The notes: generated by a model from the letters alone, not told the origin. A stretch of 64,000 nt of DNA from a bacterium (GCA_963675295.2 CAXXKJ010000002.1:4128001-4192000), one strand, 5' to 3'. Positions 36,752 through 60,427 are shown, counted from the first letter of the stretch. A program made the numbers and translations.

Positions 36752-36869
36752 CCGGCTGCTCTGCCTCCGTCCCGCCTCGTAGAATCTGAACCCTCCGCTC
36801 TCCGGTTTGTGCCAACCCCATGAAACTTGTCTACTTTCCCCCATTCACAACACAATCTGGGGTCTACCG

Positions 36870-37835: not shown

Positions 37836-37932
37836 CCCGGATCGGGTTGCTACCCTCTGCCCCGTAGCTTGCCCGTTTTGGCTCTGACAACGCGGCCTGA
37901 TGGATACGGACACCTTTGGAGAGGTTACTGAA

Positions 37933-44200: not shown

Positions 44201-44294
44201 GCGGCCGTTCGGTGATGAGGCGTCCGGTTCGATCGAGTTCGAGATGGGACCGTTCGAGATCCGGACCTTTGCGGTCCGAGTGAACCAAGTCTGA
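41214..44294 (+). CDS. Cytoplasmic GH38 alpha-mannosidase (MAN2C1/Ams1-like)
   Basis: GHAHLDTAWLWP, WLPDVFGYS, GVGDGGGGP, GELYLELHRGT, NQFHDILPGSS, LLNDCKYG; no signal peptide. Confidence 0.93.
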   Translation: MPDKFQQLHVTRIERFRDRIGKLIIRDTRELTVDCALTDEELPFEKRTSLDYKPLREGGSWGSEYQMAWLHLSGTVPSEWAGKTVVAQLDIGGEGLVYDDAGKMLQSVSSGSIFDKDYARDIVLLFDEAPDGETVELWIDASANDLFGLITEMDPSAESPKRYGEWKAELKHARLALFDTDLWHLWMDLRIVLGLIRTLPEDGVRRARLIRCGSEAVDVFTENPANASLSREVLARELSKPAAASDLNAVAIGHAHLDTAWLWPVREGKRKAERTFASQCDLIERYPGYVFGASQPHQYEYVRDRKPELWERIKWHVNNGGWEPLGGMYTEADCNLASGEALARQLLYGKRFFLDEFGVDVRHLWLPDVFGYSAALPQLLKKAGIDYFITIKISWNQFNKFPHHTFVWRGIDGSEVLAHFPPEGNYNSMLDADYLVPGRDAFTEKDRVDVFLSSFGVGDGGGGPLPETIEYGKRLANTEGAPRVRFGRVADFFDELESYRDQLDRWSGELYLELHRGTLTTQAKVKRSNRKLEYLLQATEMLHAFLPLDEYPATELTAAWKTLLINQFHDILPGSSVTETYRVTLAEYDRIAQTCAELEQAAVEKLGTADDNAITLFNPLSNAFYGDVALPDSCPRKQLFNRQGDPLPTQLIGDQTWISLELKPSSLDTIHSSDLEIQPSDPVEGRILENDRIRFEFDKAGHLIHAIDADSGWDAIPEGEPGNRFLLFADRPNDWDAWDVDLFYETNLLGEAECVGYESLGVGSVGSALRFTFKRNKSTIVQDVILTWYSNELRFITRVDWHEDHTMLRVNFPVNVQTDRAAFDIQYGHVFRPTHRNTSWDKARFESAAHRYVDLSEQDRGVALLNDCKYGHGVHDNVISLNLLRSPTYPDPDADRGQHEFTFSLYPHEGDLVRSDVIERAAALNQPPLAWPGIRVESKALPCTLTGDGLALTTIKRGEDGDAWIVRVVETRGRRSSGTLQCELPGAEIVECDLIERPFGDEASGSIEFEMGPFEIRTFAVRVNQV

Positions 44295-44418: not shown

Positions 44419-45441
44419 ATGCGCTTCAGTATTGGTTTGACGTTGACCTGGCTGCTGGTTTTGACGGCGATTCCGTTGCTCGCCGGGGAACTGGTTGAAT
44501 CGACCACCGTCCCGGTGTTCGATCATCAGGTGCTTCATTTCAACCCTGATTCGACGGATCTGTACGTCGACGCACCGGTCGTCGCGCTGGACAACGGACG
44601 CGAGGCGGTATGTCCGGTGACCCTGCCCGACTACAACAAATCCACCCGGATCCTCGCGCACCTGACCCTCGATCCGATTCCGAAGGACATGCTGACGGTC
44701 CATGATCGCTGGGACCGCGCGGGGAACGTCCGTCTCACCAACCTCGACGGTCCGGATGTCGAGATCGCGCGCTTCATGACCAGTTACGGCGGCCACACCG
44801 AGCACACCCTCGATGTCACCCACCTCGCGCCGTTGCTCACCGGCGAACGGGACCTGGTCGCATTTGTCGATACCTGGGTCAGTCCCGGTTGGCAGGTGAC
44901 GTTCGATCTCGAATTCATGCCGGACACGTCCGCCTACGCACCCGACTGGGTGTTGCCGGTTTACTACACCACCGGGATGAACGCGCAGGACAATCCGGAC
45001 GGTGTCGACATTCCGGTTACCATTCCGCCGGGATTGGCACGGGTCGCGTTGGTCTACATCTCGACCGGTCACTGCACGGATGGCCGTGACGAGGACGAAT
45101 TCTACGCCAAGCCGAATGTGATCTCGGTGGATGGCATGGTGGTTGAACGGTTACACCCGTGGCGGGATGATTGCCGTGAGTACCGTGACCACAATCCGTA
45201 CACGGCGAAATGGACCGACGGCACGTGGTCCTCCGACTACAGCCGCAGCGGGTGGTGCCCGGGTGTGGAAGTTGACCCGACGGTCATCGACCTCACCGGC
45301 AATCTGTCGCCCGGCGAGCACACGATGCATATCGAGGTCGAGAACATGCGGCCCATTGACGAGGAAGAGCATTTCGGTTACTGGCGCATCTCCGCGCACC
45401 TGATCGGCTGGAAGGAGTACCCGCTGCTGTGGATCAACTGA
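44419..45441 (+). CDS. Peptide-N-glycosidase F-like amidase, exported
   Basis: Signal peptide; DRWDRAG, EIARFMTSYG, STGH...DEF, SRSGWCPG match the PNGase F pattern. Confidence 0.85.
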   Translation: MRFSIGLTLTWLLVLTAIPLLAGELVESTTVPVFDHQVLHFNPDSTDLYVDAPVVALDNGREAVCPVTLPDYNKSTRILAHLTLDPIPKDMLTVHDRWDRAGNVRLTNLDGPDVEIARFMTSYGGHTEHTLDVTHLAPLLTGERDLVAFVDTWVSPGWQVTFDLEFMPDTSAYAPDWVLPVYYTTGMNAQDNPDGVDIPVTIPPGLARVALVYISTGHCTDGRDEDEFYAKPNVISVDGMVVERLHPWRDDCREYRDHNPYTAKWTDGTWSSDYSRSGWCPGVEVDPTVIDLTGNLSPGEHTMHIEVENMRPIDEEEHFGYWRISAHLIGWKEYPLLWIN

Positions 45442-46937
45442 CTTTGCCACTGATCCCCCGGCCGGAAACGGTCACCTTCACCGGCGGTTCGCTCTCGCTG
45501 CCGCTGCGCATGTCGGTGTTCACGACAGACGAGGTCCGTTTCGAACGGATCTGGGCACCGTTGCGCCCGTTCGCGCATGCGTGGCTGCCGGGCCTGATGC
45601 TGCGGCCCGTCGTCAAACCGGACACCGCCGCAGTTCGGATCGGCGAAGCAACGGACGGGCTCGCCGAATCGTTCTCGCTGAATGTCCGCCACGACCGGGT
45701 AGACCTGCAACACTCTGGCGATGCCGGCCTGTTTTACGCGCTGCTCACGCTGCTGCAACTGCTGGCGACGGCGGAGCGGGACGGCGAGACCGTGCTCCTC
45801 CCCACGTTCGAACTGGGTGACCGTCCGCGCTTTCGCTGGCGCGGGATGCACCTCGATATCGCGCGCCATTTCTTCCCTGTCGAAGTGATCAAGCGCTACC
45901 TCGACGTGCTCGCGCTGCACCGCATCAACACCTTCCACTGGCACCTGACCGACGACCAGGGCTGGCGCATCGAGATCCGCCGTTACCCGAAACTGACCGA
46001 GGTTGGCGCCTGGCGAACGGAAGCCGACGGCACTCGAACCGGCGGGTTTTACACCCGTGCGGAAATCCGCGAGGTGGTTGAGTACGCCGCCGAACGGTTT
46101 ATCACGATCGTCCCCGAGATCGAGATGCCCGGCCATGCTCGTGCGGCGCTGGCAGCGTATCCGGAATTCTCGTGCACCGGCGAAGAGCAGCCGGTTCCAA
46201 GCACCTGGGGTGTGTTCGAGGATGTTTTCTGCGCGGGGAATCCGAAAACGCTGGAGTTCCTCGAGGATGTGCTGGAAACGGTGTTTGCCTTGTTTCCGGG
46301 ACCGTACGTGCACATCGGCGGCGACGAAGTCCCGGACACACGCTGGCGTCACTGCCCCACCTGCCGGATGACGCAGATGAAGGAGTTTCTGCAATCTCCG
46401 GCGCATCTGCAGAACTGGCTGCTGACGGAAGTGCTGGCCATCCTGCACCGGAACGACAAGCGGTTGGTCGGCTGGGACGAGATCGCTGATCTGCCGTTCT
46501 CGAACAACGCCGTGGTGATGGCGTGGCGGTCCAGCGATAACGCCCTCGCCGCCGCGATGAACGGGCACCAGGTAGTGATGAGCCCCACCGCGCACTGCTA
46601 CTTCGACTACGCACAGGCGAAAGATGGCGAGCCGGACGCGTTCCCGGCGGTGCTGACCCTCGACCAGGTGCTGGACTTCGATCCCGCGCCGTCGCGGTGG
46701 CCGGAGTTTGTCCAGTCACAGGTGCTCGGCGGACAGGGGAATTTGTGGACGGAACGGATCACCACCGAGCAGCACCTGCAGTACATGCTACTGCCCCGGC
46801 TGAGCGCGTTGGCGGAACGGTTGTGGTCAACGCGAACTGAAACTGTGGACAAGGCGGAGTTCCGGCAACGGCTCGCCTGTTTCCTGCCGCTGCTCGACAA
46901 GCTGGAAGTCCACTACCGCCATCCGTCACGCGGCTGA
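45429..46937 (+). CDS. GH20 beta-N-acetylhexosaminidase
   Basis: DRPRFRWRGMHLDIARHF, HWHLTDDQGWR, PEIEMPGH, HIGGDE, GWDE, NLWTE; no signal peptide. Confidence 0.93.
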   Translation: MDQLTLPLIPRPETVTFTGGSLSLPLRMSVFTTDEVRFERIWAPLRPFAHAWLPGLMLRPVVKPDTAAVRIGEATDGLAESFSLNVRHDRVDLQHSGDAGLFYALLTLLQLLATAERDGETVLLPTFELGDRPRFRWRGMHLDIARHFFPVEVIKRYLDVLALHRINTFHWHLTDDQGWRIEIRRYPKLTEVGAWRTEADGTRTGGFYTRAEIREVVEYAAERFITIVPEIEMPGHARAALAAYPEFSCTGEEQPVPSTWGVFEDVFCAGNPKTLEFLEDVLETVFALFPGPYVHIGGDEVPDTRWRHCPTCRMTQMKEFLQSPAHLQNWLLTEVLAILHRNDKRLVGWDEIADLPFSNNAVVMAWRSSDNALAAAMNGHQVVMSPTAHCYFDYAQAKDGEPDAFPAVLTLDQVLDFDPAPSRWPEFVQSQVLGGQGNLWTERITTEQHLQYMLLPRLSALAERLWSTRTETVDKAEFRQRLACFLPLLDKLEVHYRHPSRG

Positions 46938-47241: not shown

Positions 47242-49863
47242 ATGGTCAAGCGCCTCATCGTCCCATTGTATCTGATTCTGGGCCTTCTGGTGCTGTCGTA
47301 TTCCCCCTCCTTCGCATTGGACACCGGCAAGATCGCGGGGGTTGTGGTGGACACTGCCGGGGAACCAATCCCCTCGGTCCACGTGGTGCTGGCCGGAACC
47401 GAATCCGGCGGCGCCAGCGACCTCGACGGCAACTACTACATCATTGGTATCACCCCGGGGCAATACGATCTCCAGTTCAGCGCACTGGGGTATCGCACAC
47501 AGATTGTCACCGGCGTGACCGTCCGCTCCAACTACACCACCCGTGTCAACGCCACGTTGGACGAAGAGTCGATCGAACTGGAACCGGTAACGGTGGTGTT
47601 CGAGAAGCCGCCGGTGGATCTGGAAGACACAGGGCAGCGGATCACGGTCGCCGGGGATTTTGTCCGCAGCATGCCGATGCAGAACACCGACGAGATTCTC
47701 GAGTTTCAGGCGGGAGTGAGCGCCAGCGCGGACGGCGAACTGCACATCCGTGGCGGGCGCAGCGGTGAGGTCGGGTACATTGTGGACGGTCTTCGGGTGG
47801 ATAATCCGTTGTACGGCACCGGCGCGACTGGCGCCAACCGTCACACCCTGCAGGAGCTGCAGCTCCTCTCCGGCACCTTCAACGCCGAGTATGGCCAGGC
47901 ACAGAGCGGGATTGTGCAGATCGTGACCCGCGAGGGCGACGAACGCTACCGGGTGCACGTTGATTATGAATCCCCACGGCTCAACGACAGCCCGTACCGG
48001 ACCAGCAACTGGGTACGCGCAGGCAGTGACGCGGTTGTTAATCCCACGACCGGTGAGTCGGCGTACGAATCGACAGACGTTTCCGACCTGCACGACCTCT
48101 GGGTGCCAGTGCAAGGCTTCCTCGGCGTGACACTCTCCGGCCCGGTCCCGATGGTCCCGCAGACAACGTTCTTTGTTAACGGTGTCCATGAAGCGGAAAA
48201 CAGCTACCTGCCGTTCGGCGATCGCTGGGCGCGTCAACTATCCGGCAAGGTGACTCACAAGCGTGGGTCCGGCAAATTGACCCTCAGCGGTGCGTACGCC
48301 TACGAAAATTCGCAGAGCTACAGCCACGCATGGAAGTATGTCCCGGACCACTATTACCGCCGGTTCAACACCACGCAACGGCTGTCTGCCAGCTACTCGT
48401 ACAATGTGTCGCAGTCGCTGGTGCTGGAGGTGTTGAGCGGGTACAGCCGATTGGATCAGGACCGCAAGATTTTTGAGGATTGGGCGGACTACCTCGCCAG
48501 CGACTACTCCCCGGCCGATTTCACCTACGCGCAATATTTTTACGATCAGGAGGACTGGTCGGACATCTGGCGCGAAAGTTCGTCGACCACGTTCACCAAC
48601 TGGATCAAGGCGTCCTGGCAGCGGAATCCGGTGCATTTGTGGACCGCTGGTGTCGAGGCGAACGCGAAGCAGCTCGATCTGGAAGATATTCGTGACCTGC
48701 GCATCGGGACGAACGGCGAACGTGAAGGCGTTGTGGACCAGTTCGACCAGAGTCCAGTGGAATACGCCGCCTTCGTGCAGGACAAGATCGAGCTGGGCTA
48801 CCTCGTCGTAAATGCAGGATTGCGGTTTGACTACGTCGACCCAAAGGCTGAGGGCTGGGCTGACCCGGAAACGCCGAAGCGTAGGCTGAAGGAAGTGGAC
48901 CCGTCGTATCAGTTGAGCCCGCGTCTCGGCCTCGCGCACCCGATCAGCCCGGAATGGACGCTGCACTTCGCGTACGGCCACTTCTTCCAGTTCCCGGACT
49001 ATGTCAACCTGTACATGAACGCCGCCGACCTCAATCCGGATACGTTGGCGAACCGATCATTCGATGTCATCGGCAACCCCGCATTGAAGCCGGAGCGCAC
49101 GGTTTCCTACGAAGTCGGCCTCAAGGGCATCATCGCGGAAAACTGGGGTTGCAGCTTCACCGCGTTCTACAAGGACATCACCGATCTCGTCGGCACCCGG
49201 CAGGTTCGCTACGGCGCGTCGTACAACTACGCCCCGTTCGTGAACATTGATTACGCGAACGTGAAGGGCTTCGAGGTCAACCTCAGCCGCAGCCTTGAGC
49301 GGTTCTGGAGCCTGCAGGCGAACTACACCTTCAGCATCGCACGCGGGAACTCGTCCGAACCAACCACCGGCTACTATGACGCCTACACCGGCACTCCGGA
49401 AGCACGGCAGGAGTATCCGATGGATTTCGACCGGCGGCATGTGGCGAATGTGATGCTTGCGTGGAACGCCGGCTTCGAGGATTATCCGCGTGTATTCGGC
49501 AGCTCCATCCTCAGCGGTGCGGGGGTCGGGTTGATCGGGCAGTACGCCAGCGGGTTGCCGTATACGCCCTACTCGGCGGCCGGCGAGCAATTGTCGCTGC
49601 GCAACTCGGAACGGATGGCGTACACGATGACGGTCGACCTGCGCCTGAGCAAACGGCTTCGCTGGAGTGGGGTGGATTTGACCGTCTACAGCACCATTTC
49701 CAACCTGTTCGACCGGGACAATCCGTTGTTCGTCGATTCACGCACGGGTGAACCGTGGGAGAGCACATTGGTCAGCAACAACATCGCCTTCGATCAGCTG
49801 CACGACCCGAGTCGTGTCGGTCCGCCACGGATGATCAAGGTCGGTGTGGAGGTTTCCTTTTGA
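47242..49863 (+). CDS. TonB-dependent receptor with an N-terminal carboxypeptidase-regulatory-like domain
   Basis: Signal peptide; TGKIAGVV, HIRGGRSGEVGYIVDG, GTFNAEYGQAQSGIV, SPRLG, GNPALKPERT; C-terminal EVSF. Confidence 0.92.
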   Translation: MVKRLIVPLYLILGLLVLSYSPSFALDTGKIAGVVVDTAGEPIPSVHVVLAGTESGGASDLDGNYYIIGITPGQYDLQFSALGYRTQIVTGVTVRSNYTTRVNATLDEESIELEPVTVVFEKPPVDLEDTGQRITVAGDFVRSMPMQNTDEILEFQAGVSASADGELHIRGGRSGEVGYIVDGLRVDNPLYGTGATGANRHTLQELQLLSGTFNAEYGQAQSGIVQIVTREGDERYRVHVDYESPRLNDSPYRTSNWVRAGSDAVVNPTTGESAYESTDVSDLHDLWVPVQGFLGVTLSGPVPMVPQTTFFVNGVHEAENSYLPFGDRWARQLSGKVTHKRGSGKLTLSGAYAYENSQSYSHAWKYVPDHYYRRFNTTQRLSASYSYNVSQSLVLEVLSGYSRLDQDRKIFEDWADYLASDYSPADFTYAQYFYDQEDWSDIWRESSSTTFTNWIKASWQRNPVHLWTAGVEANAKQLDLEDIRDLRIGTNGEREGVVDQFDQSPVEYAAFVQDKIELGYLVVNAGLRFDYVDPKAEGWADPETPKRRLKEVDPSYQLSPRLGLAHPISPEWTLHFAYGHFFQFPDYVNLYMNAADLNPDTLANRSFDVIGNPALKPERTVSYEVGLKGIIAENWGCSFTAFYKDITDLVGTRQVRYGASYNYAPFVNIDYANVKGFEVNLSRSLERFWSLQANYTFSIARGNSSEPTTGYYDAYTGTPEARQEYPMDFDRRHVANVMLAWNAGFEDYPRVFGSSILSGAGVGLIGQYASGLPYTPYSAAGEQLSLRNSERMAYTMTVDLRLSKRLRWSGVDLTVYSTISNLFDRDNPLFVDSRTGEPWESTLVSNNIAFDQLHDPSRVGPPRMIKVGVEVSF

Positions 49864-49874
49864 ACCGGAATCAG

Positions 49875-52874
49875 ATGCAGCCCCGGATCACGATCCGCCT
49901 GATGCTGGCGGTGTTGCTGGCGATTTTTGCGGGAACCGTTGCCTTCAGCGCGGACCCCGGCGACCATGAGATCAAGGACCGGGATGCGTTGAAACGTCTC
50001 GGCGCGGTGGTCGAGGATCGCGGGATCGGTCTGCTCGACAAGGGCGAGCTGGCCAACCTTATCACCAACATCGGGATCATCAGCGATTTCCATTTCGGCA
50101 CTCCGGCGCTGCACTGGCCGCGCAATGGAGAGGACGTGCAACACTACGGCTTCGGTGTCGGTCTGGTCGTGCTGGCGGACGGGCAGGTGGTCGCCTCGGT
50201 GCACGATCCCGATTCCCCGTTGCTCGATTACGGCTGGGAAGCCGAGCAGGGATCGCTCGGCGGCTTGTTCAACGATGTTCGTACGGACGACAACACGGCG
50301 GCCGACGAGGTGACGCCGTTCCTCGCGTTCTCCGACCGTCCGGCGACGTGGCCTGTGGTCGGCGGCGAACCCACCTGGCCCGGCCCGTTCCGGCGTGACC
50401 TCGCCAACCCCACTCAGGAGGTGGAAGGCGAATTCACCTCCGACCGTGACATTTACTCCGTCTTTCGTGACAAGCGAGATGTCGGCCTGCGAGTCGAACA
50501 GATCGCCTACTCGTACAGCCGCCCCTACGCGACTGACCTGATTTTCGTCCGCTACGTGCTGCACAACGACAGCGGCGCGGATTTGGATGAGGTCTACGCA
50601 GGTTTCTTCGCGGATCTCAAGGCGGATTTCTACGCCGACGACCGTATCGGCACGTGGTCGCTTGTCGATGGCGAGAAGTATCCGTCGTTCTTCTTCAAGC
50701 AGGACCTGAACGGCGTCCCGCAACGTGACGACTCATCCCTGTTCGAACAGTGGGTTGGACCGGTCGGCTGGATCGGCGCGGGGATTGTCGCGACGCCGGA
50801 CGACATGGGCGTGACCAGCTTCCACTACTACCACGACGACGAAAGTCCGGTCGAGGACGAAGATTTCAGCGCGATTCTGCGCAATGATCCGTCAGGCACG
50901 AACAACCCGGACTGGTATTTCCACGGCGACAATCCACAGTATGACGACGTCTCGGTGCAGGCCGAGGTGGACAAGGATGCGTTCCCCGGGTCGGAGATTA
51001 CGTTTACCTCAGGCGTGGGACCGTTCTCGCTTCCGGCGGGTGGCAGCGAGGAATTCGCGCTGGCATTCGTGATCGGCGCCGATTCAACGGAGCTGTACGA
51101 CAATGCCGCCACTGCCTACCAGATGGCGCGCGAGATGCACTACCAGGGGTCCGGCCCACCGGCGACTCCGACCCTGCGTGCGACACCGGGCGACGGCGAG
51201 GTTCTACTGAGCTGGGACAATGTCGCGGAAGGCAGCGTGGACGCATTCACCGGGCTGCGTGATTTCGAGGGCTACCGACTCTACAAGTCCACTGACGGCG
51301 GCCTGACCTGGGGCGATGTGGTCACCAACTGGTTCGGCGAACCATCCGGCTACGTGCCCATCTTCCAGTGCGATCTGGTCGACAGCTTCACCGGCCCGGA
51401 CCCTGCGTACGGTCCGGATTTCCCCAACGCGAATGTCTGGCTCGGCGACGACACCGGCCTCAAGCACAGCTACCTCGATACGGATGTCACCAACGGCGTC
51501 GAAACGTGGTACACGATCACCGCTTACGATCGTGGCTTGTACGATCCGGATGATCCTCTCGCCGCCGAACCGAGCTACGAAACCTCGTTCGGCAATTCCG
51601 CCAGCGACGCGAACACCGTTGCCGTCACTCCCGGCACCCGCGCCGGGGACTGGCGTGCGGGCACGGCGGGCGGGCTGATCGAACTGAACGGCGCGGTCAG
51701 TGACGGCTACATCGACATCGAAATTATCGACAGCGACGAGCTGACCGGCTACACCTACAACGTCACCTTCAATGATGTCGGCGACACGTTGTCCCTCGAG
51801 CCGGACACGGTTATCGTCGAGGAAACGTCACTGAATCTCGAGTGCCTGACTACCGGCACGAATGTGTTCACCGACATGCACAGCGGTAAGGAATTCGTCT
51901 ACTTCAACGTGCCACTGAGCATGGCACAGCCGGCGGTGGACGGTTTCCGTCTTATTGTGCAGGATGTGGACGGGACCGGCGTGCGGGACCTGGGTTGGAC
52001 CACGGTGAACGACGAAGAGAGCACCTTTACCTGGTGGACGGCGAACAACTACCCGTCGAATCCGTCCAGTTACGAGGAAGTGGTCGCGGGGGCGATGGAC
52101 TGGCGTGTCAGCATCACCGACTCACCTGTCGAATTTCGGACGACAACTCTTGGGTTTACCGAACAATTCCATGACACTTCGTTCGCAGCACCGCTTAAAC
52201 TGGAAGTGTCCGACAATGCTGCGGATGGTGTGTGGACCGATGTAACCGACTACGGCGCGTTTTCCGATCTCGTGTTTGCGTTCGGGCCGATTCCATCGCT
52301 GAGTCCGGTTGGTTGGGATCTCGAGCCGGGCGGGGCAGCGTGGAACCCGTCCACCCCACCGGACGGCACCCCGTTGTTCCCGGACATTCTGTGGTTGCGT
52401 GACGATGACGACGACACGTCCGGTGCGGAGGTGTGGCTGAAGACGAACAACGGGCCGCCGGATGCAATTCCGCCGAGCGTTGGCGACGTCTTCACGATTA
52501 TCACGTACAAGCCGTTCCGGCGGGGCCTGGTCTATGAATTCACCACCGAGGCTCCCTCCACGTCCGCAACTGTCGATCTCGGCGCGATTCGTGTGGTTCC
52601 GAACCCGTATATCGTGGATAGCGCCATGCGTGGCTCGGATGGCGAGGGGCAGGTGATGTTCACCAACCTGCCTTCCCGTTGCGACATCACGATTTACACC
52701 GTTGCCGGGCGCAAGGTGGCGGAGCTGACGCATGACAGCAGCGGCACGGAAGGATTTGCGTACTGGGATTTGCGCAACGAACACGGCCAGGACATTGCGT
52801 ACGGGGTGTACGTGTATGTCGTATCCACCCCGGACGGTGACAAGCATACAGGAAAATTGATGGTGATCCGGTAG
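49875..52874 (+). CDS. Large (~1000 aa) acidic secreted protein with an Fn3-like module and a variant T9SS-like CTD
   Basis: Signal peptide; PPATPTL...V.LSWD...DFEGYRLYKS; CTD IRVVPNPY...FTNLP...IYTVAG...WDLRN...GVYVYVV...GKLMVIR. Confidence 0.8.
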   Translation: MQPRITIRLMLAVLLAIFAGTVAFSADPGDHEIKDRDALKRLGAVVEDRGIGLLDKGELANLITNIGIISDFHFGTPALHWPRNGEDVQHYGFGVGLVVLADGQVVASVHDPDSPLLDYGWEAEQGSLGGLFNDVRTDDNTAADEVTPFLAFSDRPATWPVVGGEPTWPGPFRRDLANPTQEVEGEFTSDRDIYSVFRDKRDVGLRVEQIAYSYSRPYATDLIFVRYVLHNDSGADLDEVYAGFFADLKADFYADDRIGTWSLVDGEKYPSFFFKQDLNGVPQRDDSSLFEQWVGPVGWIGAGIVATPDDMGVTSFHYYHDDESPVEDEDFSAILRNDPSGTNNPDWYFHGDNPQYDDVSVQAEVDKDAFPGSEITFTSGVGPFSLPAGGSEEFALAFVIGADSTELYDNAATAYQMAREMHYQGSGPPATPTLRATPGDGEVLLSWDNVAEGSVDAFTGLRDFEGYRLYKSTDGGLTWGDVVTNWFGEPSGYVPIFQCDLVDSFTGPDPAYGPDFPNANVWLGDDTGLKHSYLDTDVTNGVETWYTITAYDRGLYDPDDPLAAEPSYETSFGNSASDANTVAVTPGTRAGDWRAGTAGGLIELNGAVSDGYIDIEIIDSDELTGYTYNVTFNDVGDTLSLEPDTVIVEETSLNLECLTTGTNVFTDMHSGKEFVYFNVPLSMAQPAVDGFRLIVQDVDGTGVRDLGWTTVNDEESTFTWWTANNYPSNPSSYEEVVAGAMDWRVSITDSPVEFRTTTLGFTEQFHDTSFAAPLKLEVSDNAADGVWTDVTDYGAFSDLVFAFGPIPSLSPVGWDLEPGGAAWNPSTPPDGTPLFPDILWLRDDDDDTSGAEVWLKTNNGPPDAIPPSVGDVFTIITYKPFRRGLVYEFTTEAPSTSATVDLGAIRVVPNPYIVDSAMRGSDGEGQVMFTNLPSRCDITIYTVAGRKVAELTHDSSGTEGFAYWDLRNEHGQDIAYGVYVYVVSTPDGDKHTGKLMVIR

Positions 52875-52975
52875 TTGAGTGGAGCGAACATCGAGGGACA
52901 CGATCCGCTTCACCATCGCAACATTTTCTACAGGATCAACAGCCCCGGAGGGGGGCGCATAACGAGGAGAATCGC

Positions 52976-53959
52976 ATGCGTATTGCTCTGACTTTCTTCC
53001 TGCTGGTACTGGTCTCCGGGATCAGTTCGGCGGATGTAATTTTCGAGGAACACTTCACCGACGGCAGCATCCAGGACGGCTGGTTCTCTCCGTGGCCGGA
53101 AGGCCAGGATATTGTGATCACTCCGGACCCGACCGCGCCGAGCGGCGATGGTTGGACCGGCAGTGTCGCCGGCGACCAGGCTTCCACCGCGCTCAACGGC
53201 ACCATGGACCTGGAAGATTACACGGTTGAATCCTGGATCTACACGATTGTCTCGAACGACGTCATGTTCCCGGTTTATAACGCCGTCGCGGCGCGTTGGG
53301 ACACGACCAACGGCAATTCGTACTACTATTTTACCACCATGTTCGGCTCGACCAAGAAAATGCGGCTGCGTCGCTATCCGGGCTCCGGCTTTGCCGCGGA
53401 AACCTTCATTGAATGGTCTGCCGCGGAGATTCCCGGCGGCGCCCCGACTGAGAGCAGCTGGCACAAGATGACGCTGCGTGTTTCCGGCGACGAGATCTGG
53501 TGCTACTGGGATGATCAATTGATGCCCGGCTGCCCGTACACCCCGTCAGCGGAATTCCGCCAGTACTCCGGGTTCTTCGGCATCTACGAGTTCTACATGG
53601 GCGACCAGGTTACCGAACCGGAAACGCGGTTTGACGATTTCATGGTCACCGATGAAAACAACGACGTCGACGAGATCACGATCGCACCGGTACCGAACTC
53701 ATCCATCGTCAGCTCGCTGTACCCGAACCCGTTCAACGCCAGCACCACGGTCACCTTCACCAATTCGGTTCCGGGTGATGTGACGCTGGCGGTGTGGGAC
53801 GTGCTCGGTCGACAGATGGCGACCCTTCAGCACGGGTTCCTCTCCCCCGGCGATTTCCGGGTGACGTGGGACGCGGCCGGCTATTCGACCGGCAACTACT
53901 TCATTACCGTGCAGCTCGGCGACAAGCAGGTGGTGCATCGCGCCGTGCTGACCAAGTAG
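52976..53959 (+). CDS. Secreted beta-sandwich (ConA/lectin-like) protein with a T9SS type-A CTD
   Basis: Signal peptide; WHKMTLRVSGDEIWCYWD, G.FGIY, RFDDFMV; CTD LYPNPFN...VWDVLGRQ...GNYFI. Confidence 0.7.
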   Translation: MRIALTFFLLVLVSGISSADVIFEEHFTDGSIQDGWFSPWPEGQDIVITPDPTAPSGDGWTGSVAGDQASTALNGTMDLEDYTVESWIYTIVSNDVMFPVYNAVAARWDTTNGNSYYYFTTMFGSTKKMRLRRYPGSGFAAETFIEWSAAEIPGGAPTESSWHKMTLRVSGDEIWCYWDDQLMPGCPYTPSAEFRQYSGFFGIYEFYMGDQVTEPETRFDDFMVTDENNDVDEITIAPVPNSSIVSSLYPNPFNASTTVTFTNSVPGDVTLAVWDVLGRQMATLQHGFLSPGDFRVTWDAAGYSTGNYFITVQLGDKQVVHRAVLTK

Positions 53960-54105
53960 CGCTTACTCAGGTTGTGACCAACTTTCGGGATCAGGCGAGG
54001 CGAGTCGTTTCGCCTGATTCCGGCGGTGTTGATCATGCGGGCGTGCGGAAGGTTGGTGGTTAGCACCGTCGCACACCCGCAGCAGCCCACAATGCGAGGT
54101 CTCGC

Positions 54106-56772
54106 ATGAGTCGTTGGAAACCGAATCACGGATGGGCGATCGCCAGCGTTCTGCTGGCGTTGTTGCTGCTTCCGGCAACGTTATTCGCCGCACCGGAGAT
54201 CGTGGTGCCGGGCAGCGTCGTCTTTCAGCTGTCGTACGCTGACGCCCTGCCGCAGGACGCGTCCGAGGGTGCCCTGTTGCGCACAGGTGACGCCGCGTTT
54301 GACGAGTGGTTGGGCACGATTGACGCCAGCAGCATGAAGAACGAATTCGGCGACCTGATGCCGGACATGCGTGTCGTGCGGTATGACGCAGACCGGCCGG
54401 GCGGGCAGATTCTGGACGAGCTGCGGGATTTCCCGTTTGTCGTGCAGGCGGACGCCAACTACGCATTCCCGTGGTCTGAGCTCACGCGAACCCCGTCTGA
54501 CCCGGAAGCGCCGGGCCAGTGGCACCATTACGCGATCAATTCGTATCGCGGCTGGGCGTTGGCGCAGGGGTCGGACGATATCATCATCGGCATCGTTGAC
54601 AGCGGTGTCGACTATGACCATCCCGATCTCGAGAGCAGCATCTGGGTTAATCCCGGTGAGGATCTGAACAACGACGGTATCTGGGACGCTTCCGACGTTG
54701 ACGGTCTCGACAACGACGACAACGGCTACATCGACGACGGCATCGGCTGGGATTTTGTCACCGAGACCGAAGTCTTTCCCGGTGACGATCCGGGTCCGCC
54801 AGACAACGATCCCAACGATTTCGACGGACACGGCACCCACTGTTCCGGCGATGCTGCCGCGACCACGAACAACGGCATCGGTGTTGCCGCTCCCGGTTGG
54901 GGCTGCAAGATCGGCGCGTTGCGGGCGGGCTGGACGACGACAGGCGGCCTCGGGGTTGTCGGTCTGCTTGAGGCGACCAATGCCATCACCTATGCCATGA
55001 ACCACGGTTTCGATGTCATCTCGATGAGCTTTGGTGGACCGGGCGGCGATCCGTTCTACTTCCAGCAGGCGATGCAGATGGCGTATGACGCTGGCCTGAT
55101 CCTCGTCGCGGCAGCTGGCAATGAAAGCTCGAATGTGCCGCAGTATCCCGCCGCCGAGGACATGGTGATCGCCGTCGCCGCGACCGACCAGAACGATGAG
55201 CTGGCCGATTTCTCCAGCTGGGGCGACTGGGTCACCTTGGCCGCGCCCGGTGTCGCGATTTACAGTACCACGAATGCGGGCGGCTACGGCCAGCAGGGCG
55301 GTACCAGCATGGCGTGCCCGATTGTTGCCGGTTCCATCGCCAACCTGATGAGCATCGCGCCGCCGGGCTGGACTAACGACGACATCATCTTCCGGCTCAC
55401 CTCCACTGCGCGTGAAATTCCGGTTCCGGGCACCGGCGCCGGTATTGTCGACCTCGGCGCATTGCTTGACGTGTACGTCTCGGTCGACTCGGTCTGGGTG
55501 TACGATGGCGTCGTGCCGCACATCATTCACGGGCAGGAAGGCACCTTCGGCATGCGCTGGCAGAAGCATGACCAGAGCGCGCAGGAAGTGTCGCTGAAGC
55601 TGACCTGCGACGAACCCCGGGTCACGCTTGGTGCTGATTCGCTGTGGATCGGGATCGTGACACAGGGCCAGTCTGGAAACTTCGAGGTGCCGGTAACTGT
55701 CGCGCCCGGTGACGAGGATGTCGAGACGATTGACGTCGTCGCCCGCTTCCGTGGCTCGGATTTCTTCAACAACGATTTCGACTTCGAGCAGATCATCCCG
55801 CTACGTGTCGGCCAGGCACCGGTGCTGCTGATCGACGATGACCAGGGCGGCGCGGGCCGTATTGACACGTGGTATCTCAGTGCGATGGAGCAGGTCGGGG
55901 TGGAAACCGAAGCGATCAAACGGTCGGATATCTCGGTGCTGGCCGATTTTGTCGCGGGCTACGAGGCAATCATTTACGCGTCCGGCAGCCGCACCAGCAA
56001 CCATCTCACCGGGGATGACCTGGCCGTCTTCAGCGACTACCTGAACGACGGCGGCAAGATGCTGTTCTCCGGACAGAACATCGCTGAAGATCTGGCGGCG
56101 ACCAACCCGGACGTGCTCGACACCCTGTTCCACATCGAGCTGACTGAGCCCAACGCGAACCAGCTTGTGGTGCGTGGCATCGAAGGCCATCCGATCACCG
56201 ATGGCTTCTACCTCTTCCTCGCCGGTGAGGGGGGCGCGTGGAACCAGGACAACATCGACGTGCTCGCCGCTCAGGACGGCGCGGAACCGTTGTTCGTATT
56301 CAGCGCGGACCAGCCTGAGCGGTTGGCGGGTGTGCGAGTACAGGAAGGAATGCGCGACCTGGTTTTCTGCTCGTTCGGTCTGGAAGCAATCAACGATGAC
56401 TGGGTGAACGCGTCCACCCGTGCCGAGGTGCTCGACCGGATCTTCGTCGCCTGGGGCTTTGAGACTGGTGTCGCCGAACCGGGCAGGGACGGGTCAGGGC
56501 TGATCGCGGATGAGTTCGCCGTCTCCCGCCTGTGGCCGAATCCGACGAACGGGTTCGTGCAAAGTGTGATCACGTTGCCGTCACCGGGTCAGGTACGAAT
56601 CCGTGTGTTTGACCTGCTCGGACGGGAAGTGGATGCGTACGACTTCGCCGGTTCCGCCGGTCATAACCGTTTTTCTTGGCAGATGCCGGCGGGATTGAGT
56701 TCGGGGATGTATTTCCTCCGAGCCGAGCATCAGGCGGATGCACGGCAACAGCGTTTCCTGTATGTCAAGTGA
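54106..56772 (+). CDS. Secreted S8 subtilisin-like serine protease with a T9SS CTD
   Basis: Catalytic motifs IVDSGVD, GHGTHCSG, AAAGNE, GTSMACP; CTD LWPNPTN...VFDLLGREV...SSGMYFL. Confidence 0.93.
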   Translation: MSRWKPNHGWAIASVLLALLLLPATLFAAPEIVVPGSVVFQLSYADALPQDASEGALLRTGDAAFDEWLGTIDASSMKNEFGDLMPDMRVVRYDADRPGGQILDELRDFPFVVQADANYAFPWSELTRTPSDPEAPGQWHHYAINSYRGWALAQGSDDIIIGIVDSGVDYDHPDLESSIWVNPGEDLNNDGIWDASDVDGLDNDDNGYIDDGIGWDFVTETEVFPGDDPGPPDNDPNDFDGHGTHCSGDAAATTNNGIGVAAPGWGCKIGALRAGWTTTGGLGVVGLLEATNAITYAMNHGFDVISMSFGGPGGDPFYFQQAMQMAYDAGLILVAAAGNESSNVPQYPAAEDMVIAVAATDQNDELADFSSWGDWVTLAAPGVAIYSTTNAGGYGQQGGTSMACPIVAGSIANLMSIAPPGWTNDDIIFRLTSTAREIPVPGTGAGIVDLGALLDVYVSVDSVWVYDGVVPHIIHGQEGTFGMRWQKHDQSAQEVSLKLTCDEPRVTLGADSLWIGIVTQGQSGNFEVPVTVAPGDEDVETIDVVARFRGSDFFNNDFDFEQIIPLRVGQAPVLLIDDDQGGAGRIDTWYLSAMEQVGVETEAIKRSDISVLADFVAGYEAIIYASGSRTSNHLTGDDLAVFSDYLNDGGKMLFSGQNIAEDLAATNPDVLDTLFHIELTEPNANQLVVRGIEGHPITDGFYLFLAGEGGAWNQDNIDVLAAQDGAEPLFVFSADQPERLAGVRVQEGMRDLVFCSFGLEAINDDWVNASTRAEVLDRIFVAWGFETGVAEPGRDGSGLIADEFAVSRLWPNPTNGFVQSVITLPSPGQVRIRVFDLLGREVDAYDFAGSAGHNRFSWQMPAGLSSGMYFLRAEHQADARQQRFLYVK

Positions 56773-56782
56773 GGGAGGACGC

Positions 56783-57796
56783 ATGAACAGGTCGCTGCAA
56801 CGGGTAGGCTTGACGCTGCTGCTGGTGGCGGTGCTGCTGCCCGGACACGCTGCTGGGTTTGACAAGCCCGGCACCACCGCCGCCACTTTTCTGCAGATCA
56901 TTCCCGGCAGTCGTGTTCCGGCGATGGGTGGCGCGGGAGTCGCATTGGCCGGTGGCGCGGAAATGCTCGCGATCAACCCGGCCGCGATCGCCTCGGACCG
57001 GTTCTCGGCGTCGTTCGCTTACAACGACTGGTTCGCCGGGCTAGAGCATCAAACATTGGCCGTCACCGCTCCAGTCCGGCCCAATCTGCGCGTCGGGATT
57101 CACGCGATCTCGTTCGGCGGGGACGAATTCGAGCAGACGACGCTCGAGATGCAAAACGGGAACGGCGTCATGGTCGACTACGGCGATCTGGCGGTGGGTG
57201 CATCCGCGATCATGCAATTGACTGACCGTTTCACCGTCGGCATCACCGGGAAATACATCCGCCAGGACCTGTTCCATACCTCCGCGCAGACCGGCGCGCT
57301 TGACGTCGGCACGCTGCTGCACACCACGCTGGACGGTTTTTCCATCGGCATGGCGATGACCAACCTCGGCGGCGACATGCAGCTCACCGGGCAGGATCTG
57401 ATCGCCGACGCGGAGTCGGACAATGCCGCCGAAACCCGGCTGCACACGTCGAAATGGCCGTTGCCGCTGTCCTTCCAGTTCGGCTTCGGCTGGCGGCTGG
57501 TGGGCGAGCAGGACGCGTTCTGGCGGGACGATCTGCACGAGTTCACCCTCGCGGTCGACAGCCGGCATTTGAACGAAGGGATTACCACCGTGCACGCCGG
57601 CGCGGAATACGGGCTGTACGACATCGTCTTCCTGCGCGGCGGCCGCAGCCTGAACCACGACACCGAGGAGTGGTCGTTCGGCGGTGGCGTGCGGGTCAAC
57701 CTGCGCAGCCTGACCGTGAACGCCGACTTCGCCTACGCCGACATGGGCGACCTGAACTCAGTAAAGCGGGTGACGTTACGGATTTGCGGACGCTGA
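56783..57796 (+). CDS. PorV/PorQ-family outer-membrane beta-barrel
   Basis: Signal peptide; KPGTTAATFLQI.PGSR..AMGGA...NPA; GITGKYI, DVG, NLG, LP.SF, GAEY, DFAY. Confidence 0.85.
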   Translation: MNRSLQRVGLTLLLVAVLLPGHAAGFDKPGTTAATFLQIIPGSRVPAMGGAGVALAGGAEMLAINPAAIASDRFSASFAYNDWFAGLEHQTLAVTAPVRPNLRVGIHAISFGGDEFEQTTLEMQNGNGVMVDYGDLAVGASAIMQLTDRFTVGITGKYIRQDLFHTSAQTGALDVGTLLHTTLDGFSIGMAMTNLGGDMQLTGQDLIADAESDNAAETRLHTSKWPLPLSFQFGFGWRLVGEQDAFWRDDLHEFTLAVDSRHLNEGITTVHAGAEYGLYDIVFLRGGRSLNHDTEEWSFGGGVRVNLRSLTVNADFAYADMGDLNSVKRVTLRICGR

Positions 57797-57975: not shown

Positions 57976-57979
57976 CGTG

Positions 57980-58910: not shown

Positions 58911-58923
58911 GCCGTAGAGAAAT

Positions 58924-60407: not shown

Positions 60408-60427
60408 CCGAGAGGAGGTGATCATCC

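Follow-up and report, generated by a model that had tools for sequence, protein, structure and literature searches.

A recurrent TonB-dependent receptor, variant-CTD protein and PorV-family barrel as a candidate outer-membrane uptake module

A three-gene unit in a glycan-degrading locus

In this study we describe a unit composed of a TonB-dependent receptor (TBDR), a large variant-CTD protein (designated BIG) and a barrel of the PorV/PorQ family, which we interpret as a conserved outer-membrane uptake module, present in seven copies in the genome analysed, including the focal one. In this interpretation, to which we assign a probability of about 60%, the tail of BIG would be docked in its own barrel and the captured substrate would be passed to the TBDR. 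Such a unit is found repeatedly in many little-studied relatives of Bacteroides, where it probably takes over the task of SusC/SusD using other components. A search of the literature found no description of the trio and no experiment on any of its members, nor were RNA data found.

The focal copy occupies positions 47242-57796 of the window (the whole 64,000-nucleotide stretch of DNA that was analysed), where the genes for the TBDR, BIG, two cargo proteins with type-A CTDs and the barrel follow one another in this order on the plus strand. The TBDR-BIG unit is preceded by GH130, GH38, PNGase F and GH20 genes, which form an N-glycan locus. The features are as follows.

36807..37835, plus strand: GH130 mannoside phosphorylase-like gene, upstream part of the N-glycan locus (Pfam Glyco_hydro_130, 177 bits)
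37900..39165, plus strand: CBM9-like protein (Pfam CBM9_1, 31.8 bits)
39191..41224, plus strand: sodium:solute symporter (Pfam SSF, 72.3 bits)
41199..44294, plus strand: GH38 alpha-mannosidase (Pfam Glyco_hydro_38N, 281.6 bits; 38C, 188.2 bits)
44419..45441, plus strand: PNGase F-like peptide-N-glycosidase (Pfam N-glycanase_C, 111.2 bits; N-glycanase_N, 43.5 bits)
45429..46937, plus strand: GH20 beta-hexosaminidase (Pfam Glyco_hydro_20, 378 bits)
47242..49863, plus strand: TBDR (Pfam TonB_dep_Rec_b-barrel, 123 bits; Plug, 24.8 bits; CarboxypepD_reg, 63.8 bits)
49875..52874, plus strand: BIG, 999 aa, class IV of the variant-CTD family (Sec signal peptide, no lipobox, no Pfam match)
50007..51164, plus strand: BIG residues ~45-430, galactose-mutarotase-like supersandwich domain (VIA-align, Foldseek)
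51174..52544, plus strand: BIG residues ~434-890, FN3-like domain (DFEGYRLY motif) and further beta-sandwich domains (secondary structure of the model, Foldseek FN3 matches)
52557..52871, plus strand: variant (PorZ/PorU-type) CTD of BIG (NCBIfam PorZ C-terminus, E 3.5e-9; profile, structure and HMM separation)
52976..53959, plus strand: 327-aa protein with an ordinary type-A CTD (TIGR04183, 33 bits; Pfam Por_Secre_tail, 29.5 bits)
54106..56772, plus strand: S8 subtilase with an ordinary type-A CTD (Pfam Peptidase_S8, 161.6 bits; TIGR04183, 34.2 bits)
56783..57796, plus strand: PorV/PorQ-family barrel (NF033709, 155.7 bits; an ORF start at 56738 is also possible, 56783 being more likely)

BIG begins 11 nt past the TBDR stop codon. 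Its N-terminus, MQPRITIRLMLAVLLAIFAGTVAFSADP, is a Sec signal peptide without cysteine, and BIG is therefore not a lipoprotein, in agreement with the original prediction of a ~1000-aa non-lipoprotein right after the TBDR. The same prediction held that the operon ends with its own PorV-like gene; the barrel does close the operon, with the qualification that the two type-A cargo genes (the 327-aa protein and the S8 protease) separate it from BIG, an arrangement that makes the focal copy atypical. The substrate of this copy is probably N-glycan or glycoprotein material, which the PNGase F, GH38, GH20 and GH130 enzymes and the secreted S8 protease would process. The SSF symporter is, judging from its sequence, the likely inner-membrane sugar importer and would move the products across that membrane.

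The receptor and its relation to SusC/SusD

The focal TBDR consists of a signal peptide, a CarboxypepD_reg N-terminal domain, a TonB-box-like strand, a plug (24.8 bits against a Pfam cut-off of 23.9) and a barrel, and its plug, 22-strand-type barrel domain and TonB-box-like strand identify it as a TonB-dependent receptor. The strand, LEPVTVVFEKP, follows the N-terminal domain and is conserved in 7/7 module TBDRs of the genome; judged by the general consensus, this is presumably the TonB box. Membership of the SusC/RagA family was rejected, since the protein scored 90.4 bits on TIGR04056 (cut-off 368) and matched profile positions 2-389 only; the other six module TBDRs scored 61-96 bits. The sole PDB sequence match of the focal TBDR is the N-terminal extension of SusC (9hfj, E 6e-4).

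The module resembles SusC/SusD (RagA/RagB) pairs and utilisomes in having a CarboxypepD_reg-type TBDR with the gene of a surface partner directly after it, and in the location of the pair inside an enzyme locus that is substrate-specific and includes an inner-membrane transporter, several copies per genome serving different substrates. The parts themselves are different. SusD is a helical lipoprotein, whereas BIG is all-beta, about 1000 aa long and devoid of both a lipobox and a SusD Pfam match; the module TBDR falls below the TIGR04056 cut-off; and anchoring would use a protein barrel and T9SS export instead of a lipid. BIG was thus rejected as a SusD/RagB protein on three grounds (no Pfam match, no cysteine in the signal peptide, an all-beta model). 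The SusD models PF07980 and PF14322 had no match in the whole genome, while a Bacteroides thetaiotaomicron control was matched. This negative result counts in favour of the suggested SusCD replacement.

The tail of BIG represents a variant CTD class

The tail of BIG reads VVPNPY...FTNLP...WDLRN...GKLMVIR, as originally quoted, and the predicted difference from the YPNPFN-type CTDs was evident in the alignment, where variant tails depart from YPNPFNP-type tails by an insert of 12-20 residues with I.F.NLP..C.I.I(Y/F)T and by the ending GKF.VI[KR]. An HMM was built from the seven variant tails of the genome, whose own scores (110-164 bits) are high by construction; the next proteins were PorZ (39 bits) and PorU (25 bits), and all the rest, type-A CTD cargo included, stayed at or below 24 bits. 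Independent proteins from other genomes gave 90-150 bits. The BIG tail is a discrete CTD class, as the HMM separation demonstrates. It is not an orphan one: it stands closest to the CTDs of PorZ and PorU, both of the retained kind, which refines the predicted separate class to a PorZ/PorU type of CTD. The best PDB matches of a profile of the seven tails were PorZ (5m11) and PorU (6za2), and the CTD of BIG aligned with the PorZ CTD structure over 87 residues (Z 11.6, 26% identity).

A type-A sorting domain was rejected for BIG, which had no Pfam match at E<=0.01 and no TIGR04183 among its NCBIfam matches. PF18962 matched 0/7 of the variant-CTD proteins of the genome (searched at E<=0.01 for BIG and at E<=0.001 for the six others), and the neighbouring 327-aa and S8 proteins do match type-A models. 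Distant homology of the BIG CTD to the type-A domain is indicated by the 18 bits obtained with a type-A HMM from our own seed. A type-B sorting domain was also rejected, given that NCBIfam matches at E<=0.01 included no type-B model and that the linked barrel belongs to the PorV/PorQ and not to the PorP family.

Fold of BIG

No Pfam match, Por_Secre_tail included, was obtained for BIG at E<=0.01, and the family comprises 4961 representative clusters at E<=1e-3. BIG is distinct from PorZ, as which it was rejected: NF052228 gave 35.7 bits against 260, only over the C-terminal residues 929-1039 of the long ORF, and PorZ_N_b_propeller was not matched. The AF2 model (pLDDT 85.7) is all-beta. Residues ~45-430 matched, in VIA-align, 9ju0 (Z 19.3, rmsd 2.9, 246 aligned), 5nz7 (Z 18.3) and 1lf6 (Z 17.8).

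This supersandwich resembles the N-domains of GH15, GH94, GH65 and GH116 enzymes as well as aldose epimerases (Z 12-19), and 49 homologues show little or no variation at many Asp, Glu, His and Trp positions. Both observations would suit an enzyme tethered to the surface and belonging to an undescribed family (a glycoside hydrolase, a lyase or a phosphorylase-like protein), which would cut polymers for the TBDR rather than serve as a binding lid. We consider such an enzyme quite improbable, since the matched domain is the non-catalytic N-domain of those proteins, the all-beta model contains neither an (alpha/alpha)6 nor another catalytic domain, and none of the CAZy-related Pfam models matched BIG. 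The fold is also shared by the P1 domain of YidC; a modelled supersandwich, common to enzyme N-domains, aldose epimerases and YidC P1, would therefore not by itself demonstrate glycan binding.

The barrel

The focal barrel belongs to the PorV/PorQ family (NF033709, 155.7 bits for 56738-57796, cut-off 90), as do the six other module barrels (168-219 bits). It was rejected both as PorV proper (NF033710, 46.6 bits against 250) and as PorQ proper (NF033711, 54.7 bits against 220). The barrel nearest to PorV in this genome is the one beside PorU, with 200.9 bits on the PorV model (below the cut-off) and 269.8 bits on the family model. This canonical PorV, which is not a module barrel, had a PorP match that was sub-threshold only. 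The AF2 model of the focal barrel (pLDDT 89.0) has a 14-stranded FadL-type outer-membrane fold, and its best Foldseek matches were PorV structures 8gl6_F (E 5e-15, TM 0.68) and 6h3i_F, followed by FadL, TodX and BamG.

Recurrence and linkage of the three genes

The genome contains seven sets of a TBDR, a variant-CTD protein and a PorV paralogue, plus one canonical PorU-PorV pair. The enzymes beside the sets differ: GH13 amylases, GH53 galactanases, beta-helix proteins, a phosphatase/nuclease pair and, in the focal copy, N-glycan enzymes. A PorV-family gene lies within 10 kb of 7/7 variant-CTD genes compared with 22/394 type-A CTD genes, and within 500 nt of 5/7 compared with 8/394.

The variant tail was found in 78/79 genomes of the phylum. 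From 150 listed rows we hand-picked 60 loci, covering all nine families and 40 other genomes; in this selection both partners lay on the same strand in 45/60, the barrel started at most 400 nt downstream in 45/60, and neither partner was present in 6/60, at least two of which (L059 and L068) have full flanks. A second set comprised 73 loci from other FCB lineages (MAGs labelled Marinimicrobia, Calditrichota, KSB1, Ignavibacteria, WOR-3, Stahlbacteria, Eisenbacteria, Kryptonia, Bacteroidota and others). Here the barrel directly followed the BIG-family gene in 55 of the 58 loci whose flank was long enough, the TBDR immediately preceded that gene in 47 of 51, and the full TBDR-BIG-barrel triplet was found in 42 of the 46 loci with both flanks. 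Owing to the kinship among the genomes and the manual choice of the 60 loci, these counts overstate the independent support. Departures from the common order include L113 of the cross-lineage set, in which neither TBDR nor barrel stands beside the BIG-family gene, L177, with the order TBDR-barrel-BIG, and class V, in which BIG lies several kb from the TBDR-barrel pair. The variant tail is strongly linked to a dedicated PorV-family paralogue and a TBDR in the genome, in the phylum and in other FCB lineages, which is the co-occurrence that the original prediction proposed to look for.

The three components have also diversified together. The barrel tree mirrors the BIG classes (II 16/16, III 8/8, V 3/3, and IV including the focal barrel; support 98-100, with 98 for the class-IV barrel clade), and in the TBDR tree classes II, III, IV and V each form one clade with support 100, the focal TBDR falling in that of class IV. 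BIG-IV occurs in 17/79 genomes and barrel-IV in 16/79, and all 16 barrel-IV genomes carry BIG-IV. Put differently, barrel-IV is present in 16/17 genomes with BIG-IV and in 0/62 without it; in the single genome with BIG-IV alone the gene lies 346 nt from a contig end. BIG-IV and barrel-IV are retained even without linkage: 1.47 Mb lie between them in G032, and in G036 the distance exceeds 22 kb, with the two genes on different contigs; barrel-IV is likewise on another contig than BIG-IV in G034, G038 and G039. Since the barrel is unlinked or on another contig in these relatives, adjacency in an operon is not required. The barrel at the end of the focal operon is thus the class-specific partner of BIG, as the word cognate in the prediction implied.

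It is true that close kin keep gene order without selection, and many of the sampled genomes are related, so that the genes might adjoin by descent only, hitch-hiking in conserved operons with no functional tie. This explanation is barely credible, in view of the order kept across lineages labelled as different phyla and of the class-IV barrel and BIG being gained, lost and kept together (16/17 against 0/62) even when unlinked. The retention of the unlinked barrel, together with the existence of solo BIG-family genes, would also fit a dedicated shuttle, i.e. a private T9SS shuttle that frees BIG from the SprA translocon, as SprF does for SprB, after which BIG would be released or attached elsewhere, and the TBDR would merely be co-regulated without forming a complex. 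The reliance of type-B cargo on co-encoded PorP/SprF shuttles is a parallel (available parts of PMC12618676 and PMC9143113), although for that cargo the same texts propose shuttle and anchor to be one protein. We regard a role as shuttle only as unlikely: in each class the TBDR has diversified along with BIG and the barrel, and its position directly upstream in 47/51 cross-lineage loci is a tighter association than that of the co-regulated enzymes, which differ between copies.

T9SS components of the genome

Export of BIG by the T9SS presupposes this system, and the original prediction proposed to confirm sprA and porKLMN. SprA (830 bits), PorU (708 bits) and PorV (270 bits on the family model) are present, the last two encoded by adjacent genes, as is PorZ (L009:8885-11368), alongside 394 type-A CTD proteins. 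For the remaining core genes no clear match was obtained: GldK-type (PorK) matches were of the FGE-sulfatase type only (<=86.8 bits, cut-off 350), the TIGRFAM models of GldL, GldM and GldN (PorL, PorM and PorN) matched neither this genome nor any control genome, and Pfam GldM_1st, which had no match here, matched two control genomes below its cut-off.

The TBDR might also be a PorF-like T9SS component, the trio being a paralogous secretion or attachment sub-complex and not a nutrient importer. Precedents are the co-immunoprecipitation of Cytophaga hutchinsonii PorV with SprA and a PorF-homologous TBDR (available part of PMC8564354) and the requirement of a CarboxypepD_reg-type TBDT for PopC secretion in Myxococcus (available part of PMC6434023). 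We hold this to be very improbable, because the genome has seven class-distinct copies, each located among different substrate-degrading genes and accompanied by an inner-membrane transporter, as well as a separate canonical PorU-PorV-PorZ set, and because plug and TonB-box-like strand are kept in the TBDR.

Proposed mechanism and known parallels

Our preferred reading, the uptake module, envisages the following course. Sec would carry BIG across the inner membrane. Its tail would be neither cut off nor linked to a glycolipid, as a type-A tail is, but would stay on the protein and dock non-covalently into the cognate barrel, just as PorQ receives the tail of PorZ and PorV that of PorU. The barrel would keep BIG on the cell surface beside the co-encoded TBDR, to which the supersandwich and beta-sandwich domains, acting as a lid, may pass the substrate that they capture. 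BIG would then be to the TBDR what SusD and surface glycan-binding lipoproteins are to SusC. A single stable outer-membrane machine, built of the TBDR, the PorV-family barrel and the surface protein docked by its tail, is a more tentative proposal, which we consider possible but somewhat doubtful.

The closest parallels are PorZ-PorQ and PorU-PorV of the Porphyromonas gingivalis T9SS attachment complex, which combine a surface protein exported by the T9SS with a 14-stranded barrel of the PorV family. According to the available part of a review (PMC10202324), the CTDs of PorZ and PorU are retained, held by PorQ and PorV respectively, and cognate PorV-like barrels have been suggested to protect CTDs from cleavage. 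The adjacency of porU and porV in this genome is also that of BIG-family genes and barrels. The beta-propellers of PorZ and the C25 peptidase of PorU are both missing from BIG, and the module pairs occur in many classes per genome, tied to TBDRs and catabolic loci and not to cargo attachment. If the three proteins do form one stable machine, retention of a CTD in a cognate barrel would be a widespread route of surface mounting, with PorZ-PorQ and PorU-PorV as two particular instances, and SusD-type lipoprotein lids would be a parallel or later solution.

Type-B CTD cargo with PorP/SprF (SprB-SprF, PG1035-PorP) similarly combines a special CTD class with its own, genetically linked FadL-family barrel, proposed as shuttle and anchor, the CTD being probably uncleaved (PMC9143113, PMC12618676 and PMC10202324, in their available parts). 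The module differs in its PorV/PorQ-family barrel, its PorZ/PorU kind of tail and the TBDR as a third member. In the Bacteroidota BAM complex, as described in the available part of PMC12578637, the FadL-family barrel BamG packs against BamA and carries an extracellular dome, for which it is the platform. The proteins that BamG holds are lipoproteins, and its service is to protein insertion, with no T9SS tail and no TBDR; BamG-BamH is an architectural precedent only. The model of the focal barrel matches BamG (9hiv_F) with E 5e-8, and two module barrels gave weak BamG matches.

Organization of the focal locus

All genes of the locus are located on the plus strand, in a region of 61% G+C:

36807-37835, +, GH130 protein (Pfam)
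37900-39165, +, CBM9-like protein (Pfam)
39191-41224, +, sodium:solute symporter (Pfam)
41199-44294, +, GH38 alpha-mannosidase (Pfam)
44419-45441, +, PNGase F (Pfam)
45429-46937, +, GH20 hexosaminidase (Pfam)
47242-49863, +, TonB-dependent receptor (TBDR) with CarboxypepD_reg domain, plug and barrel
49875-52874, +, BIG, a 999-aa protein without a Pfam match
52976-53959, +, 327-aa protein with an ordinary type-A CTD
54106-56772, +, S8 protease with an ordinary type-A CTD
56738/56783-57796, +, PorV/PorQ-family barrel (NF033709, 155.7 bits versus a cut-off of 90)

The BIG gene starts 11 nt after the TBDR stop codon, and the Sec signal peptide of its product contains no cysteine. A Pfam search with BIG at E<=0.01 matched nothing, and the NCBIfam models gave only local matches, in which its last ~100 residues align with the C-termini of PorZ (E 3.5e-9) and PorU (E 0.01). 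The original prediction was right about the coordinates, the gene order, the non-lipoprotein nature of BIG and the C-terminal motifs that it quoted. Scans of positions 44000-59000 revealed no promoters (3 sites versus 4.2 in shuffled sequences) or terminators (11 versus 12.2) above the shuffled background, and do not define the operon boundaries.

A discrete class of PorZ/PorU-type tails

The C-terminal tail of BIG differs from the ordinary tails of this genome in that VPNPY is followed by an insert of 12-20 residues, holding a conserved strand (I.F.NLP..C.I.I(F/Y)T), while the tail ends with GKF.VI[KR]. An HMM was seeded with the seven variant tails encoded in the genome, whose own scores (110-164 bits) are therefore high by construction. 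The next matches within the genome were an 827-aa protein (39 bits), which is its PorZ (Pfam PorZ_N_b_propeller), and PorU (25 bits); all others, including the type-A CTD cargo, scored 24 bits or less, and non-seed proteins from other genomes reached 90-150 bits. The separate CTD class that had been proposed is thus apparent in the scores. When the seven-tail profile was compared with all PDB sequences, the top two matches were the CTDs of PorZ (5m11, E 0.0073) and PorU (6za2, E 0.015), with a type-A cargo CTD (8glj_D) reaching just E 0.79. The AF2 model of the BIG tail is superimposable on the PorZ CTD (Z 11.6, rmsd 2.5, 87 residues aligned, 26% identity). The variant tail is therefore a discrete class of the PorZ/PorU kind. 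Membership of BIG itself in the PorZ, PorU or SusD families was rejected by membership tests.

Seven modules in one genome

The genome (4.81 Mb in 2 contigs, 92.8% complete) carries 10 PorV_fam genes above the cut-off, plus one at 86.9 bits, and tblastn placed BIG paralogues just upstream of PorV paralogues. Besides one canonical pair of PorU (708 bits) and PorV, gene lists and NCBIfam scans revealed seven sets composed of a TBDR, a variant-CTD protein of 829-1230 aa (the partner) and a PorV/PorQ-family barrel. The three genes are contiguous in four sets; in the others (i) a gene for a 729-aa beta-helix protein separates TBDR and partner, (ii) the partner lies ~6 kb upstream of the TBDR-barrel pair, or (iii) partner and barrel are split apart by two type-A cargo genes (the focal set). 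None of the seven partners has a Pfam match. All seven TBDRs have, in this order, a signal peptide, a CarboxypepD_reg domain, a strand of the form E-V-T/V-V/I-x-x-E-K/R-P, which we take to be a TonB box from the consensus, and a plug. The catabolic genes beside the sets differ, and include two GH13 amylases, two GH53 galactanases accompanied by a weak, sub-threshold match to CBM20 (a starch-binding domain), beta-helix proteins and an alkaline phosphatase next to a nuclease-like protein; at the focal copy they are those of the N-glycan set.

As a control we used the 394 proteins of this genome that carry a C-terminal type-A tail, as recognized by an HMM built from its own seeds. Linkage of the variant CTD to TBDR and PorV genes, also part of the original prediction, proved pronounced: all seven variant-CTD genes lie within 10 kb of a PorV-family gene and within 10 kb of a TBDR gene, versus 22/394 and 23/394 type-A CTD genes, respectively. 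Within 500 nt of a PorV-family gene the figures are 5/7 and 8/394.

Another locus of this genome (L008, G000:C2:455142-459330) encodes a 525-aa BNR/sortilin-like protein with an FlgD_ig-type tail ending in GKILVMD, and downstream of it a pair of PorV-related barrels (563 and 296 aa); it may represent a tail-barrel pairing of a different kind, without a TBDR.

Distribution in the phylum and beyond

Matches to the tail profile at E<=1e-8 occur in 78 of the 79 species genomes of the phylum (this one included), representing nine families, and in all 51 high-quality genomes, with 1-9 matches per genome. We selected 60 matches in 40 genomes (a non-random choice from 150 listed of 350, covering every family) and scanned ~20 kb around each locus in all frames, using HMMs of the module proteins of this genome. 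Both partner genes, barrel and TBDR, were found on the same strand in 45 loci, the TBDR only in six, the barrel only in three and neither in six, several of these misses being due to contig ends or to the edges of the fetched span, e.g. for a class in which the TBDR-barrel pair lies downstream. The barrel starts no more than 400 nt downstream of the variant-CTD gene in 45/60 loci.

The family extends well beyond this phylum. A word-indexed search with BIG retrieved 59 homologues, nearly all unnamed or "hypothetical", and an exhaustive one 4961 representative clusters at E<=1e-3 (338 at E<=1e-30), which have residues ~370-640 and the tail in common; the ESM Atlas yielded just unnamed neighbour clusters or ones labelled "type A sorting domain". 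When species genomes were scanned with the BIG-family alignment, 73 loci in MAGs were identified, whose record titles name Zixibacteria, Marinimicrobia, Calditrichia/Calditrichota, KSB1, Ignavibacteria, Melioribacteraceae, WOR-3, Stahlbacteria, Cloacimonetes, Eisenbacteria and Kryptonium, together with Bacteroidota-labelled MAGs (Vicingus, Chitinophagaceae) and a few MAGs labelled Lentisphaeria or Deferribacteres. A strong variant tail is present in 63 of them, the remainder being cut by contig ends or weak. The barrel is directly downstream in 55 of the 58 loci with at least 1100 nt of downstream sequence, the TBDR directly upstream in 47 of the 51 with at least 2500 nt upstream, and the full triplet present in 42 of the 46 with both flanks. 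The exceptions to the triplet are L141, with the barrel 3.8 kb downstream, L177, with the order TBDR-barrel-partner, and L113, with neither partner gene.

L113 (from a Cloacimonetes-labelled MAG) and two class II loci of the phylum, L059 and L068, represent "solo" variant-CTD genes, whose surroundings lack PorV-like and TBDR genes for ~8-10 kb in both directions; in the latter two, whose flanks are complete, both are truly absent. The barrel of these solo proteins, if there is one, must be encoded elsewhere. At two further loci (L089 and L086, in G060 and G054) the variant tail lies in short frames of 109 and 186 aa alongside an intact TBDR and barrel, which suggests that the partner genes are frameshifted or broken in these assemblies.

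Co-diversification and co-retention

BLAST clustering of 67 partners (the 60 above and the seven of this genome) produced five classes of 21, 21, 8, 7 and 7 members and three singletons, the latter caused by broken or fused frames. In a maximum-likelihood tree of 56 barrels, those of classes II (16/16), III (8/8) and V (3/3) each form one clade with support of 99-100, and a class IV clade (support 98) unites the focal barrel with barrels whose genes immediately follow BIG orthologues in another family. The class labels require 8 changes on this tree, compared with a minimum of 6 and an average of 30.8 after shuffling. In a FastTree phylogeny of 55 TBDRs, classes II, III, IV and V each form a single clade with support of 100. 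The clades of barrels and TBDRs mirror the BIG classes; therefore the three genes have been passed on and duplicated together from a time that precedes the divergence of the families of this phylum. In one locus (L064, G018:C2, frame 5496-11297) the class IV TBDR and BIG orthologues are joined in a single open frame of 1934 aa, uninterrupted by a stop codon; gene fusion, an error of sequencing or mere sharing of a frame could each account for this.

A rival, very unlikely reading of the linkage of the trio is mere hitch-hiking of neighbouring genes, against which the unlinked copies of class IV speak. We searched the 79 genomes for orthologues of BIG (BIG-IV, E<=1e-120) and of the focal barrel (barrel-IV, E<=1e-65 and 40-92% identity, with other classes at 37% or less). 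BIG-IV is present in 17 genomes and barrel-IV in 16, all of them among the 17; the one BIG-IV without a barrel-IV (in G078) ends 346 nt from a contig end, and none of the 62 genomes lacking BIG-IV has barrel-IV. Both are absent from six genomes of the family to which the window belongs and from three of family f3, implying several joint losses or gains. The distance between the two genes varies as follows:

Relative position of BIG-IV and barrel-IV
Adjacent: G031 and six genomes of family f3
About 4 kb apart, separated by two cargo genes: the four genomes of the genus represented by the window
1.47 Mb apart on one contig: G032
Barrel-IV on another contig, with more than 22 kb of barrel-free sequence after BIG-IV: G036
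On different contigs, irrespective of contig ends: G034, G038 and G039

Co-retention, together with the linkage and the mirrored trees, makes a cognate pairing of BIG and its barrel highly probable.

A partnership of the focal barrel with the S8 protease encoded just upstream was considered and rejected, because in G032 and G036 barrel-IV stands alone, with no homologues of the S8 protease or of the 327-aa protein nearby.

Predicted structures and secretion machinery

The BIG model (from 49 sequences; pLDDT 85.7, pTM 0.65) is all-beta. Residues ~45-430 are predicted to form a galactose-mutarotase-like supersandwich, followed by an FN3-like domain, further sandwiches and the tail. The best matches of the supersandwich are the N-domains of dextran dextrinase (9ju0, Z 19.3, rmsd 2.9, 246 aligned residues), a GH94 phosphorylase (5nz7, Z 18.3) and a GH15 glucoamylase (1lf6, Z 17.8), with GH65 and GH116 enzymes, aldose epimerases and the YidC P1 domain ranking lower; this whole-model search bears mainly on the supersandwich and barely probes the other domains. 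BIG could alternatively be an anchored enzyme; several of these matches are parts of enzymes, and no catalytic-type domain is visible in the model. Likeness of the modelled fold proves neither binding nor catalysis, and substrate binding by BIG, for which fold and genomic context speak, has in our estimate an even chance of being correct.

The model of the focal barrel (pLDDT 89.0) has Flavobacterium PorV as its best fold match (8gl6_F, E 5e-15, TM 0.68), followed by FadL, TodX and BamG, and PorV was also the only match in a PDB sequence search (E 4e-6). Such a protein might act solely as a private shuttle. Precedents that bear on the mechanism proposed below are the cognate PorP/SprF barrels that are reported to anchor type-B cargo (PMC9143113; PMC12618676), and the FadL-family barrel BamG of the Bacteroidota BAM complex, described as packing against BamA and serving as a platform for an extracellular dome (PMC12578637). 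Protection of CTDs from cleavage by cognate PorV-like barrels has been put forward by other authors as a hypothesis (PMC10202324).

Of the core T9SS genes, on whose presence the original prediction depended, those for SprA (830 bits versus a cut-off of 200), PorU, PorV and PorZ were found in the genome, and its 394 type-A tails argue for an export route that works. The matches to the GldK model are FGE-sulfatase-type proteins below the cut-off, and three of their genes have no recognizable L, M or N genes adjoining. The TIGRFAM models of GldL, GldM and GldN had no match in the genome, the control genomes being silent too, and Pfam GldM_1st had none either. SusD_RagB and SusD-like_3 had no match in the genome, and gave matches in the Bacteroides thetaiotaomicron control. 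One of the GldK-like genes (L101, G000:C2:1912244-1919713) is followed by a gene for a peptidase C25 protein of 1948 aa that also has NIDO and type-A CTD domains, i.e. gingipain-like cargo or a PorU relative adjoining a PorK-like gene.

A possible substitute for SusD

Polymer import in Bacteroidota is accounted for by SusC/SusD. To our knowledge, many abundant and mostly uncultured lineages of the FCB group from sediments, oceans and soils possess TBDRs and lack SusD. We propose that BIG-family proteins are T9SS cargo that would keep their PorZ/PorU-type tail, which a class-specific PorV/PorQ-family barrel would hold, thereby fixing the protein to the cell surface next to the TBDR inherited with it, where it would capture substrate for import through this receptor. 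BIG would thus be a functional analogue of SusD and of surface glycan-binding proteins, made from unrelated parts. To this whole chain we assign a probability of about 0.6.

Cooperation of the BIG-barrel pair with the TBDR is likely, given that the genes are adjacent almost everywhere, that the TBDR tree is mirrored as well and that the contexts are catabolic. The TBDR could instead be a PorF-like secretion accessory, and a study of Cytophaga reports co-immunoprecipitation of PorV with SprA and a PorF-like TBDR (PMC8564354).

The known kinds behind the trio are TonB-dependent uptake with a surface partner and T9SS retention of CTDs by cognate barrels; a unit of TBDR, CTD protein and PorV paralogue was not found described in the full-text literature searched, which was mostly outside subscription journals. 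If the T9SS indeed supplies and mounts the surface partner of the receptor, this would provide (i) a testable uptake mechanism for SusD-less FCB lineages, (ii) a function for a very large unannotated family (the 4961 clusters, with no Pfam model), and (iii) a reason for the many PorV paralogues in such genomes. Cognate-barrel CTD retention, a rule drawn from two housekeeping T9SS proteins, would also come to cover hundreds of modules specific for their substrates, and the trio would be a better marker of polymer-utilization loci in these phyla than SusC/SusD. The window contributes a copy whose barrel was displaced by inserted cargo genes and a phylum-wide test in which partner and barrel prove to be kept or lost jointly, also where they are unlinked.

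Surroundings of the focal locus

The N-glycan theme reaches past the coordinates of the module, because a second GH38 alpha-mannosidase (1360 aa, with CHB_HEX_C/Fn3_assoc and PA14 domains) is encoded at 22779-26861. This gene is upstream of a low-G+C island (26000-31000; 0.41-0.49 versus ~0.61), which contains, on the minus strand (26858-30334), a gene for a hybrid histidine kinase of 1158 aa that combines a receiver domain with numerous PAS domains; the composition of this island suggests a foreign origin. A second low-G+C stretch (58000-62100; 0.44-0.54) begins directly after the PorV-like gene and comprises, besides small ORFs that match no family, genes for a DUF932 protein (59823-60407) and a nuclease-family protein of the PD-(D/E)XK type (60527-61333). 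It may be the remnant of a mobile element at the edge of the locus.
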